From: Beijerinckiaceae bacterium
Lineage (GTDB): Bacteria; Pseudomonadota; Alphaproteobacteria; Rhizobiales; Beijerinckiaceae
DNA length: 64,000 nt
Assembly: GCA_947476075.1 (NCBI GenBank)
Contig: CANJPM010000003.1
Span: forward strand, 434-64,433
Reading direction: 5' to 3'
The notes under the pieces are model-generated. The model did not search any database, had not been told where the DNA came from, and saw nothing but the letters and a program-made list of their open reading frames with translations. Positions 59,258 to 61,455 of this stretch are shown one piece after another. The position numbers and the translations under genes are program-made. Positions within the stretch are counted from its first letter, which is position 1. Every line of letters begins with the position of its first letter.

Positions 59258-59428
59258 TCAGGGTGCGATTACGTCCTTTGCGCGCCCCTGTTGGGGGCGG
59301 CAGGCGTACCAGCAACCGGCGCACAGCGCGGCCAGAAAGAGGGAAATAAGCCACGGGCCGAAGAGCCCCACAAAAATGATGAGGACGATAAATCCAACCA
59401 TCGCCTTTTCGGCGAAACGAGCAAACAT
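59258..59428 (-). CDS. Putative small membrane protein (56 aa)
   Basis: Hydrophobic run MVGFIVLIIFVGLFGPWLISLFLAALCAGCW; GGAG about 9 nt upstream; fills an otherwise empty gap. Confidence 0.45.
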   Translation of the reverse strand: MFARFAEKAMVGFIVLIIFVGLFGPWLISLFLAALCAGCWYACRPQQGRAKDVIAP

Positions 59429-59498
59429 CGACCGGCTCCGCACTCAACGCGCTGCTTCATGACCACAGGAAGCAGCGTTAAAAGAGTACATGCAAACT

Positions 59499-59612: not shown

Positions 59613-60269
59613 CTACGCGCGCACCGTCGTCACGCCAATCATGGAATCGCGCGTGACCAGCGCGGCCAGCTCGTCTTCGCTCAAACTCTCCGACCCTGCG
59701 GGACGCTGCGGAACAACGAGATAACGCAGGTCAGCGGTGGAATCATGCACGCGCAACTCGACGCTGTCGGGCGTCAGCGTGCCAAATTCCGCCAACACCT
59801 CGCGCGGCTCACGCACGATGCGGGCTCGATAGGCGCGGCTTTTGTACCACGACGGCGGCAGTCCGAGCAGCTCGCGCGGATAGCACGAGCACAGCGTGCA
59901 GACGACGACGTTGTGAACCTCATCCGTGTTCTCCAGCGCGACAAGCTCCGTCGTGTTCATCGGGAAACCAAGCTCCGCCACCGCCGCATTGGCGTCGCTC
60001 ATCAACCGCTCGCGAAACGCGGGATCAACCCATGCACGGGCGACGACTTTTGCACCATGGGCTGGCGTAATCATGTCGCGCGCTTCAATGGCGGCGCGCA
60101 CTTCGTCGGCAGTCACCACGCCTTTTTCGATCAGCAATTCCTTCAGCGCCACGCCGAGAATTTGATAATACGAATGCACCTTGTCGTCAGGCTGCGGCGG
60201 CGAATGCGCATGTCCATGTGAATGTTCGTGGTCATGATGATGATCGTGTTCGTGATGATGCTGGCTCAT
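59613..60269 (-). CDS. Cobalt nitrile hydratase alpha / thiocyanate hydrolase gamma (ScnC-like) subunit
   Basis: VVCTLCSCYPR metal-binding motif (Thr indicates Co type), WYKS..YR, RVHDSTADLRYLV, VTRDSMIG; His-rich N-terminus. Confidence 0.93.
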   Translation of the reverse strand: MSQHHHEHDHHHDHEHSHGHAHSPPQPDDKVHSYYQILGVALKELLIEKGVVTADEVRAAIEARDMITPAHGAKVVARAWVDPAFRERLMSDANAAVAELGFPMNTTELVALENTDEVHNVVVCTLCSCYPRELLGLPPSWYKSRAYRARIVREPREVLAEFGTLTPDSVELRVHDSTADLRYLVVPQRPAGSESLSEDELAALVTRDSMIGVTTVRA

Positions 60270-60279
60270 GCTGTGCTCC

Positions 60280-60564
60280 TCAGGGCTGCTCAAGCCAGTT
60301 ATCCTGCAAGTCGATATGCACGCTGTCGCGCTCCGATCCCTTGTAATCGGGCCATATCTCAACCTGCCGGAAACGCACTTCGTAAACGTGCTTCTTCTCT
60401 CCCGGCAGATTGAAGGCCAGCGTTTCAGGGTTGCCGTAGGCGCCAAAGCGGCGCGTCACCACCCCCGTCTTGCCGCGAATGTAGACCGGCGTTCTAAAAT
60501 GCCCGATCGGATAATCCTCGCGCACGCGCACGACGTCGCCCTCGACGAAACGCTCTAGCGGCAT
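60280..60564 (-). CDS. Nitrile hydratase beta C-terminal SH3-like half (ScnA-like subunit)
   Basis: RFVEGDVVRV...GHFRTPVYIRGKTG...YEVRF...IW...V.IDL...WLE. Confidence 0.9.
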   Translation of the reverse strand: MPLERFVEGDVVRVREDYPIGHFRTPVYIRGKTGVVTRRFGAYGNPETLAFNLPGEKKHVYEVRFRQVEIWPDYKGSERDSVHIDLQDNWLEQP

Positions 60565-60902
60565 TTGGCTTCCTCCTCCGGACTCAGCTCCAGTTCGCCG
60601 GTGTCGGCCAGACGTGCCCGCACCAGCGCAACGCGGGCGTCGATCTCATCCTGCGTGAGGATTCCCTTGTCGACCATCTGGCGCTGAAGCGAGGCCGTCC
60701 AGCGCTCGTAATAGGACAGGCGCTCGTAAACGTCGTGCCCAAGCTGTTCGATGGTGCGGCGGTTCTCATGGCTGATGACGATGCGCTTGGCGCCGATGAC
60801 GCCGCGCAAACCATCTATCTGCTTCTCCCAGAACGCCAATTCGTGCGTTGAGGGATCTACCGGGCCATCCTCAAGGCCGCCAACGTCATTAGGACCGCGC
60901 AT
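60555..60902 (-). CDS. Nitrile hydratase beta N-terminal half (ScnB-like subunit)
   Basis: PNDVGG, FWEK, ENRRTIEQL, YERLSYYERW, DKGILT.DE; GGGGAGAG RBS. Confidence 0.9.
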   Translation of the reverse strand: MRGPNDVGGLEDGPVDPSTHELAFWEKQIDGLRGVIGAKRIVISHENRRTIEQLGHDVYERLSYYERWTASLQRQMVDKGILTQDEIDARVALVRARLADTGELELSPEEEAKCR

Positions 60903-61017
60903 GTTCTCTCCCCATATTGGAACGATCATGCAGTGACGCGGGAACCTGCGCAAGCCTGATGCAAACGTGGCGCAAAAAGTCTAGTCTAAGCATATGCCTT
61001 CAACAGGAATGCAGCGC

Positions 61018-61455
61018 ATGGAACATCTCTTTACGCGTTTCGCCAATTCCGTCTCGCGCGCAGCCGGACGGCCGCTGACGTTCGTGATCTGCTGCGGCTC
61101 GATTGTGCTTTGGGCCGCCACCGGCCCCTTGTTTGGCTTTTCGGACACCTGGCAATTGGCGGTCAACACGTCGACCACCATCATCACCTTCCTGATGGTG
61201 TTCCTGATCCAGAACACGCAAAACCGCGACGGCGCAGCTATCCAGGCAAAGCTCGACGAATTGCTGCGCGCAGTGTCTGACGCGCGCAACGAGTTCATCG
61301 GCATTGAGCATTTAACAGAAGAAGAGTTGGACGAAATCCGCAAGGACATCGAGCGCGCAGCCTATGGCGACGACCTCGACGACCCCGAGGGCAAGCGCAA
61401 GCTGGAACTGCTGCGCGCTTCGTTCTTGCGCATGTCCGCCACGCGAACGACCTAG
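61018..61455 (+). CDS. Low-affinity iron permease (Fet4-like) family protein
   Basis: LWAATGPLFGFSDTWQLAVNTSTTIITFLMVFLIQNTQNRD..AIQAKLDELL. Confidence 0.9.
   Translation: MEHLFTRFANSVSRAAGRPLTFVICCGSIVLWAATGPLFGFSDTWQLAVNTSTTIITFLMVFLIQNTQNRDGAAIQAKLDELLRAVSDARNEFIGIEHLTEEELDEIRKDIERAAYGDDLDDPEGKRKLELLRASFLRMSATRTT

Follow-up and report, generated by a model that had tools for sequence, protein, structure and literature searches.

Three-subunit cobalt nitrile hydratases which do without an activator protein have been described in Streptomyces canus CGMCC 13662 (AnhD-AnhE-AnhA) and in Streptomyces rimosus (ToyJKL, the toyocamycin nitrile hydratase) (PMC7329996; PMC13243292). The S. canus subunits are small, 10.4 kDa for AnhD, 11.4 kDa for AnhE and 21.3 kDa for AnhA (PMC7329996), and AnhD corresponds by homology to the N-terminal part of the beta subunit and AnhE to its C-terminal part (PMC7329996; PMC13243292). 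Hydration of acetamiprid, thiacloprid and benzonitrile has been reported for the S. canus enzyme, which acquires its cobalt with no help from another protein (PMC7329996; PMC13243292). A split beta subunit is also found in the thiocyanate hydrolase ScnBAC of Thiobacillus thioparus (PDB 2DD4/2DD5), whereas the classical Co-type nitrile hydratases, such as those of Geobacillus pallidus (2DPP), Pseudomonas putida (3QXE) and Pseudonocardia thermophila (1IRE), have a beta subunit fused by a linker and need an activator gene. Here we analyse a 64,000-nucleotide stretch of DNA (the window) from a Beijerinckiaceae bacterium (assembly GCA_947476075.1, contig CANJPM010000003.1, positions 434 to 64,433). 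It carries three adjacent, tightly packed genes on the minus strand, in the order beta-N, beta-C, alpha, in which the beta subunit is made as two small proteins (Table 1). We consider it probable, though well short of certain, that this operon encodes an activator-less, three-subunit cobalt nitrile hydratase like AnhD-AnhE-AnhA, which is a relative of the thiocyanate hydrolase family and not a member of it.

The operon resembles AnhD-AnhE-AnhA in having separate beta halves and one alpha subunit, in the order N-half, C-half, alpha, in its Co-type character and its small subunits, and in the absence of an activator gene. It differs from AnhDEA and ToyJKL in its alphaproteobacterial host, in a much longer His/Asp tail on the alpha subunit and in somewhat larger subunits (115, 94 and 218 amino acids). 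In the split loci of Actinomycetota the subunits have 99, 96-100 and 203-207 amino acids, and nine of nine carry the motif CSCYPR. The pocket segment of the beta N-half reads Ser-His-Glu-Asn here, as against Thr-Asp-Glu-Leu/His in the actinobacterial split loci.

Family membership was judged by the cut-offs of the NCBIfam models TIGR01323 (nitrile hydratase alpha, 249.85 bits), TIGR03887 (thiocyanate hydrolase gamma, 291.45 bits) and TIGR03888 (nitrile hydratase beta, 152.2 bits), and by comparison with 80 loci from one-per-species genomes, 12 from sampled Pseudomonadota, 80 metagenomic thiocyanate hydrolase loci and 30 from Actinomycetota (designated L plus a number below). The alpha subunit scores 260.7 bits with TIGR01323, which is above the cut-off, and 206.7 bits with TIGR03887, which is 85 bits below it. 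Control thiocyanate hydrolase operons were taken from metagenomes with part of PDB 2DD4 chain B as the query. In one of them, L100, whose beta is 95% identical to 2DD4_B of T. thioparus, the pattern is the reverse: the gamma subunit obtains 398.9 bits with TIGR03887 (107 above the cut-off) and 200.0 with TIGR01323. A search of 401 Pseudomonadota genomes with TIGR03887 gave no match above the cut-off. The two beta pieces obtain 56.7 and 71.2 bits with TIGR03888, both below the value set for a single full-length beta subunit. Among solved structures the classical Co-type enzymes show the highest similarity to the alpha subunit (2e-66, compared with 9e-50 for the thiocyanate hydrolase gamma 2DD4_C) and to the beta C-half, the best match of which is residues 130-217 of the P. 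putida Co-type beta subunit (E 4.8e-17, compared with 5e-7 for 2DD4_A). For the beta N-half the thiocyanate hydrolase beta 2DD4_B is marginally best, with an E value of 6e-8 versus 1e-5 for nitrile hydratase.

A careful maximum-likelihood tree of 90 alpha-type subunits contains a branch with support 100/100 which parts the enzymes with a fused beta subunit and Trp after CSCYP from a superclade with a split beta subunit and Arg at that position. The alpha subunit of the operon belongs to this split-beta/Arg superclade. The enzyme lies outside the ordinary fused nitrile hydratases and also outside the clade of the thiocyanate hydrolases. An earlier note on this DNA had taken the operon to encode a thiocyanate hydrolase, or an intermediate enzyme acting on a new anionic substrate, and had allowed that grouping with ordinary nitrile hydratases would speak against this. 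It does not group with the ordinary fused-beta enzymes, and the proposed kinship stands in so far as both enzymes belong to the same superclade; membership of the thiocyanate hydrolase clade does not stand. The genuine thiocyanate hydrolases form an exclusive clade (100/100) inside the split-beta assemblage, on a branch of 1.33 changes per site, and their point of attachment within the superclade is weakly supported (81/59). The alpha subunit of the operon is found on a short branch in a clade of 10 Hyphomicrobiales sequences (100/99), which is sister to a mixed group from Woeseiaceae, Gemmatimonadota and gammaproteobacteria (97/93). A branch as long as 1.33 on the one side and a short one on the other are as expected if the thiocyanate hydrolases are those that changed function, and the safe reading is that they are a fast-evolving offshoot of the superclade. 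The split-beta loci of Actinomycetota also group inside the superclade, and with these loci as proxies, together with the published description, AnhDEA and ToyJKL probably belong there too and carry the Arg. A protein search seeded with an actinobacterial alpha subunit, which sought AnhA and ToyJ, returned only metagenomic relatives of the Rubrobacter type. It should be mentioned that a quick tree placed thiocyanate hydrolase outside all other sequences. The approximately unbiased (AU) test exposed this as the result of a suboptimal search, a tree joining thiocyanate hydrolase with the Hyphomicrobiales clade being better by 43 log-likelihood units and not rejected (p 0.85), and the quick tree has been replaced by the careful one.

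The metal motif CTLCSCY is found at residues 124-130 of the alpha subunit. Thr and Tyr in this motif are the signature of the Co-type enzymes, and the metal type is therefore predicted to be cobalt. In the beta N-half Arg48, which is equivalent to beta Arg52 of the classical enzymes, Tyr64, Tyr65 and Trp68 are invariant in all groups compared. The beta C-half keeps Gly21-His22, Arg24, Pro26, Tyr28 and Arg30, and of these Arg24, Tyr28 and Arg30 are likewise invariant across all groups. The metal motif and the catalytic Arg, Tyr and Trp residues are thus shared with the classical Co-type enzymes, which differ from the operon in the fused beta subunit, in the Trp after CSCYP and in having His or Phe in place of the second Arg of the beta N-half. 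At 28 positions of the alpha subunit the thiocyanate hydrolases (consensus of at least 90%) differ from the Trp-type nitrile hydratases (consensus of at least 75%). The Hyphomicrobiales clade is nitrile-hydratase-like at 15 of these, thiocyanate-hydrolase-like at four, one of which is Arg132, and like neither at nine. Judged from these alignments, no residue needed for catalysis has been lost, and the changes specific to thiocyanate hydrolase are absent.

The three products of the one operon would assemble with the composition (beta-N)(beta-C)(alpha) into a cobalt-type three-subunit nitrile hydratase, in which the alpha subunit would bind Co(III) via the three Cys and the backbone of CTLCSC. 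Arg48 of the beta N-half and Arg24/Arg30 of the beta C-half would hold the oxidised Cys ligands; Arg24 or Arg30 should match the second conserved beta-subunit Arg of the classical nitrile hydratases. The predicted reaction is the addition of water to a C-N triple bond to give the amide. Maturation would take place without a dedicated activator protein, as reported for AnhD-AnhE-AnhA of S. canus, and the His/Asp-rich tail of the alpha subunit is a plausible aid in capturing cobalt.

This interpretation draws on the intact domains and catalytic residues, on the TIGR01323 score, on the Gly-His kept in the beta C-half and on the 15 of 28 nitrile-hydratase-like positions in the alpha subunit. It is further in keeping with the documented activator-less three-subunit Co-type enzymes, which hydrate neutral nitriles (PMC7329996; PMC13243292). 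Several points weigh against it. Nitrile hydration by the alphaproteobacterial members of the clade is deduced from sequence, and AnhA and ToyJ were compared by their published description, from which, with the proxy loci, their kinship and their Arg are inferred. The AU test leaves room for the Hyphomicrobiales clade as the sister of thiocyanate hydrolase (p 0.85). No amidase, aldoxime dehydratase or other nitrile-related gene was found among the neighbours of the compared loci, and a role in nitrile catabolism therefore lacks support from pathway context. Finally, the activator model TIGR03889 matched nothing in the source genome, but since the control genomes gave nothing either, this is a weak negative.

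In the alignments of the substrate pocket, EERRRK of 2DD4_B and DEFRHS of the P. putida Co-type 3QXE_B fall opposite the segment HENRRT of the beta N-half. The earlier note had thus given the thiocyanate hydrolase motif correctly, and was also right that one Arg of the thiocyanate hydrolase triplet is lost here. The loss is at position 47, which corresponds to the pocket residue Phe51. The Hyphomicrobiales clade has Asn here, 43 of the 66 other split enzymes have Leu, and the thiocyanate hydrolases all have Arg (61/61). Ser44, His45 and His56 are peculiar to the Hyphomicrobiales clade; its Ser44, His45, Asn47 and His56 stand in place of Val, Asp, Leu and Pro/Glu, respectively, of the other split-beta enzymes. 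Arg49 is common to all split-beta groups, and fused enzymes have His, Phe or Trp instead. In the alpha subunit Arg132, the last residue of CTLCSCYPR, stands where the fused-beta enzymes have Trp. The Arg after CSCYP, which had been put forward as a marker of an anion pocket, is indeed present, but its value as a marker is lost, since nearly all of those classified split-beta loci that are not thiocyanate hydrolases have it too, and since the characterised Streptomyces enzymes, which share the architecture, hydrate neutral nitriles. For this reason it is probably a clade trait and would not be evidence for an anionic substrate. No mention of the CSCYPR motif was found in the literature searched.

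Because the pocket of the Hyphomicrobiales clade (Arg132 in alpha; Ser44, His45, Asn47, Arg49 and His56 in beta-N) is more polar than that of other family members, the substrate is most likely a small polar nitrile, as far as can be predicted from residues. Taken one step further, the same residues could point to a hydratase whose polar, basic pocket holds a cyano compound that is small and either anionic or strongly polar, thiocyanate excepted. Examples would be a cyano-carboxylate (cyanoacetate, beta-cyanoalanine), glycolonitrile or compounds of the cyanamide type. The four clade-specific residues are polar or basic, and the stable position of the operon between guaB and rsmB-guaA, described below, is easier to reconcile with a housekeeping or detoxifying function than with a catabolic island. 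However, the argument is purely residue-based, Arg132 and Arg49 are clade-wide and hence uninformative, and neither transporters nor downstream enzymes single out any one compound. We regard this alternative as unlikely, though it is the one to be taken most seriously. A bolder version is that a new specificity has evolved in the Hyphomicrobiales clade, directed at a small cyano compound which is anionic or very polar, thiocyanate perhaps included. It is compatible with the polar, His-lined pocket, the fixed position in the core genome and the sister relation to thiocyanate hydrolase which is not rejected, and we give it a rather small chance. If this holds, the enzyme would stand between nitrile hydratase and thiocyanate hydrolase as a living intermediate.

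We consider it improbable, and clearly more so than either of the foregoing, that the operon encodes a second type of functional thiocyanate hydrolase, one less diverged, which would convert SCN- to carbonyl sulfide and ammonia and let the cell use thiocyanate as a nitrogen or sulfur source. The likeness to ScnBAC is real: the split beta subunit, the gene order, CTLCSCYPR with its Arg, the Arg48-Arg49 pair of the beta N-half and the His/Asp-rich N-terminal tail of the catalytic subunit are all shared, the two lie in the same superclade, and, as already stated, a sister relation is compatible with the AU test. These features are, however, common to the whole superclade, and what sets thiocyanate hydrolase apart is lacking here. 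The TIGR03887 cut-off is failed by 85 bits, where the control passes by 107. The Arg triplet of the thiocyanate hydrolase beta is replaced by Asn47-Arg48-Arg49, the Phe-Tyr which ScnA, the equivalent of the beta C-half, has in place of Gly-His is absent, and so are the Asn, Asp and Gly replacements in the beta N-half. Near the metal site the alpha subunit reads ENTDEVHNVVVCTLCSCYPR, with ENTDEVHN as in the nitrile hydratases, and thiocyanate hydrolase reads ADTPTLKHVVVCTLCSCYPR, with ADTPTLKH, i.e. ADT for ENT and KH for HN. ScnB (157 amino acids) and ScnA (126 amino acids) have N-terminal extensions of roughly 45 and 30 residues which are missing from the beta pieces here (115 and 94 amino acids), and ScnBAC belongs to the exclusive, long-branched clade. 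By these family-specific tests the identification as thiocyanate hydrolase, one of the two readings in the earlier note, does not hold.

The genuine thiocyanate hydrolase loci L152 (1521-1943), L160 (1655-2134) and L171 (5398-5787) have a beta-N-like open reading frame (ORF) of 129-159 amino acids after the gamma gene, in the manner of a P15K-type activator, which it possibly is. No such ORF is found at the operon studied here. Beta-like ORFs after alpha were also seen in the classical loci L189 and L190. Two further thiocyanate hydrolase loci, L127 and L129, have a second pair of beta-N/beta-C-like genes upstream, and L148 has a beta-C-like ORF.

Returning to the nitrile hydratase which we favour, its split form turned out to be widespread. 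The split beta is kept in 139 of 159 classified alpha-bearing loci and in nine Actinomycetota loci in addition, and about 150 related loci from many phyla share a split beta subunit with separate starts. The hosts belong to Alpha- and Gammaproteobacteria, Actinomycetota, Chloroflexota, Acidobacteriota, Gemmatimonadota, Binatota and Rhodothermota. A thiocyanate-hydrolase-like layout outside Thiobacillus, in an alphaproteobacterium, is nothing out of the ordinary; the form is common in Alphaproteobacteria. A near-perfect rule connects a split beta with Arg after CSCYP and a fused beta with Trp. Among the 159 classified loci, 139 are split/Arg, 10 fused/Trp, two split/Lys and one split/Trp, and a further locus, L037, which was tallied as partial/Trp, has separate beta-N and beta-C ORFs and is hence a second split/Trp locus. 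In Actinomycetota the rule holds for nine split loci with Arg and 20 fused loci with Trp. All 121 of the closest protein relatives carry CTLCSCYPR and a His-rich tail, the closest being 93-96% identical across the alpha subunit, and one protein search gave at least 8000 scored relatives. An alpha-type gene of nitrile hydratase is present in 50 of 401 sampled genomes of Pseudomonadota and in 47 of 401 of Actinomycetota, i.e. in about one in eight. An origin of the split in an assembly error or a frameshift in an ordinary two-subunit nitrile hydratase, as the earlier note had thought conceivable for the frameshift and as a draft genome in 357 contigs might allow, can be dismissed with hardly any doubt, and so can gene decay, because the identical split with separate starts recurs in those many phyla, the linker positions of the fused-beta model are missing and not shifted, both beta pieces have ribosome-binding sites, all catalytic residues are intact and the alpha subunit is so highly conserved in the closest relatives.

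The split-beta, Arg-type cobalt nitrile hydratases are accordingly very common in soil, freshwater and marine bacteria, and only the two Streptomyces enzymes and thiocyanate hydrolase have been studied so far. The branch is already annotated, very large and barely studied, and the operon itself reveals no new kind of enzyme. As a representative it is well conserved and easy to clone, and its polar pocket is distinctive. The substrate of the alphaproteobacterial enzymes would bear on the turnover of nitriles and amides in the environment, on the breakdown of pesticides and on the origin of thiocyanate hydrolase.

Some loci depart from the standard arrangement. L093 (787-2088) has a split beta in the order alpha, beta-N, beta-C and lies inside the fused/Trp clade with its Trp kept, and its beta subunit appears therefore to have been split a second time, independently. 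L037 (9333-10684), with its split beta and Trp, is placed in the Arg superclade. In L060 and L074 Lys replaces the Arg after CSCYP. The loci L040, L058, L061 and L062 form a clade (100/99) with the gene order beta-C, alpha, beta-N (e.g. L061, 9125-10947). L061, from Azospirillum canadense, is the member of this clade whose pocket was checked, and it has Lys at the Phe51-equivalent position of the beta N-half (EEKRRG); the same motif is found in L048, the gene order of which is standard. L061 falls just short of both NCBIfam cut-offs, at 245.3 bits with TIGR01323 and 218.8 with TIGR03887.

Table 1. Features of the three-subunit nitrile hydratase operon, given as positions in the window.
Feature	Position	Strand	Evidence or remark
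Beta subunit N-half, 115 amino acids	60555..60902	minus	Pfam NHase_beta_N, E 1.4e-18; equivalent to AnhD / ScnB
Beta subunit C-half, 94 amino acids	60280..60564	minus	Pfam NHase_beta_C, E 6.6e-21; equivalent to AnhE / ScnA
Alpha subunit (predicted catalytic, metal-binding), 218 amino acids	59613..60269	minus	Pfam NHase_alpha, E 5e-81
Codons of CTLCSCYPR, alpha residues 124-132	59874..59900	minus	read directly from the sequence
Codons of HENRRT, beta-N residues 45-50, pocket-lining segment	60753..60770	minus	alignment to EERRRK of 2DD4_B
Codons of the His/Asp-rich N-terminal tail of alpha (MSQHHHEHDHHHDHEHSHGHAHSP)	60198..60269	minus	12-13 His

The genes are arranged as listed in Table 1. The ATG of the beta C-half gene and the TAG stop of the beta N-half gene lie in an overlap of 10 nucleotides, and 10 bases separate the stop of the beta C-half gene from the alpha start. 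Shine-Dalgarno-like purine runs are found 5-7 nucleotides upstream of all three starts (GGGGAGAG, GGAGGAGGAAG and GAGGAG). ORFs, Pfam domains and ribosome-binding sites thus bear out what had been read from the letters, namely a beta subunit split with this overlap and an alpha subunit, each with its own start. The gene order compared there to scnB-scnA-scnC is likewise confirmed and is the same in the thiocyanate hydrolase operons fetched. On the NCBIfam nitrile_beta model, which has 226 positions, the beta N-half covers positions 1-99 and the beta C-half positions 138-225. Positions 100-137 are covered by neither piece, from which it follows that the linker of the fused subunit is absent and has not been shifted out of frame. 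No Rfam family matched around the operon, and no consensus promoter-like or terminator-like sites were found there.

One flank of the operon consists of a divergent gene of the PF04120 type coding for 153 amino acids (60994-61455, plus strand) followed by guaB, the other of an ORF for a small membrane protein with two helices followed by rsmB and guaA. The order guaB ... rsmB-guaA recurs in L007 and L008, where guaB is 97-99% identical, in L002 from Beijerinckiaceae and in L009, L211 and L212 from Hyphomicrobiales. This recurrence indicates that in this lineage the operon has a stable place on the chromosome and is inherited vertically. A purine-linked role, which the neighbours guaB, guaA and purB might suggest, was considered and dropped as within-lineage synteny. 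Clustering of the neighbours of 74 more distant split-beta loci gave no family present in more than 10 loci, and the recurrent neighbours belong to the housekeeping genes of each lineage, for instance threonine dehydratase, acyl-CoA dehydrogenase, adenylosuccinate lyase and CTP synthase.

The membrane protein of the PF04120 type, a family named low-affinity iron permease, has the same position in L002, L003, L007, L008, L009 and L212, with 78-99% identity. The small ORF between alpha and rsmB is on the minus strand at 59264-59428 (longest ORF 59258-59443) and codes for about 55 amino acids with two predicted membrane helices and a CxGCWY motif. It is found at the same place in L002 (6790-6945), L211 (7237-7404) and L212 (7373-7540), is 58% identical to the copy in L211, and gave no family match. 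In L002 (3318-5935), L003 (1634-4251) and L009 (7206-9835) the operon is interrupted between beta-C and alpha by two subunits of the xanthine dehydrogenase family, a [2Fe-2S] (ferredoxin) subunit and a molybdopterin subunit of 720 amino acids. L004-L006 have a more distant pair of this kind, placed after alpha and a short-chain dehydrogenase. The short-chain dehydrogenase follows alpha, with or without the Mo-enzyme pair, in L004 and L210, and a MAPEG protein does so in L211 and L212. The Mo-enzyme pair may hint at the substrate, in those sub-lineages only. As a general partner the Mo enzyme was rejected, being confined to two sub-lineages and giving no equivalog match.

The source genome (3.87 Mb in 357 contigs) is 92% complete, and in it the alpha gene of the operon is the only alpha gene and its beta-N the only beta-N-like gene. 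No third beta-like ORF adjoins the operon, and neither a cobalt transporter nor an activator was seen among the compared split-beta neighbourhoods.

The N-terminal tail of the alpha subunit reads MSQHHHEHDHHHDHEHSHGHAH and is followed by the strongly conserved PPQPDDKVHSYYQILG. At least four His in the equivalent window of 32 residues are present in 66 of 74 split-beta/Arg alpha subunits, in 37 of 63 thiocyanate hydrolase gamma subunits, an example being MSADHDHDHDHDHK in L100, and in five of 11 fused/Trp alpha subunits. The idea that a His-rich tail marks the split-beta class was rejected on account of the latter number. The tail would rather be a frequent accessory of the catalytic subunits of Co-type enzymes, and as judged from its composition it may plausibly serve as a cobalt catcher where an activator is lacking. 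A second tail of this kind was seen in the Reyranella group, where an upstream ORF on the same strand, the start of which is probably over-called, has a cupin-like domain at its end and a His/Asp-rich C-terminal tail of its own (HPHPDDHAHGHDHAHGHDHAHPH). This ORF is at 4939-5982 in L064, and the same cluster is found in L020, L034, L035, L052 and L054.

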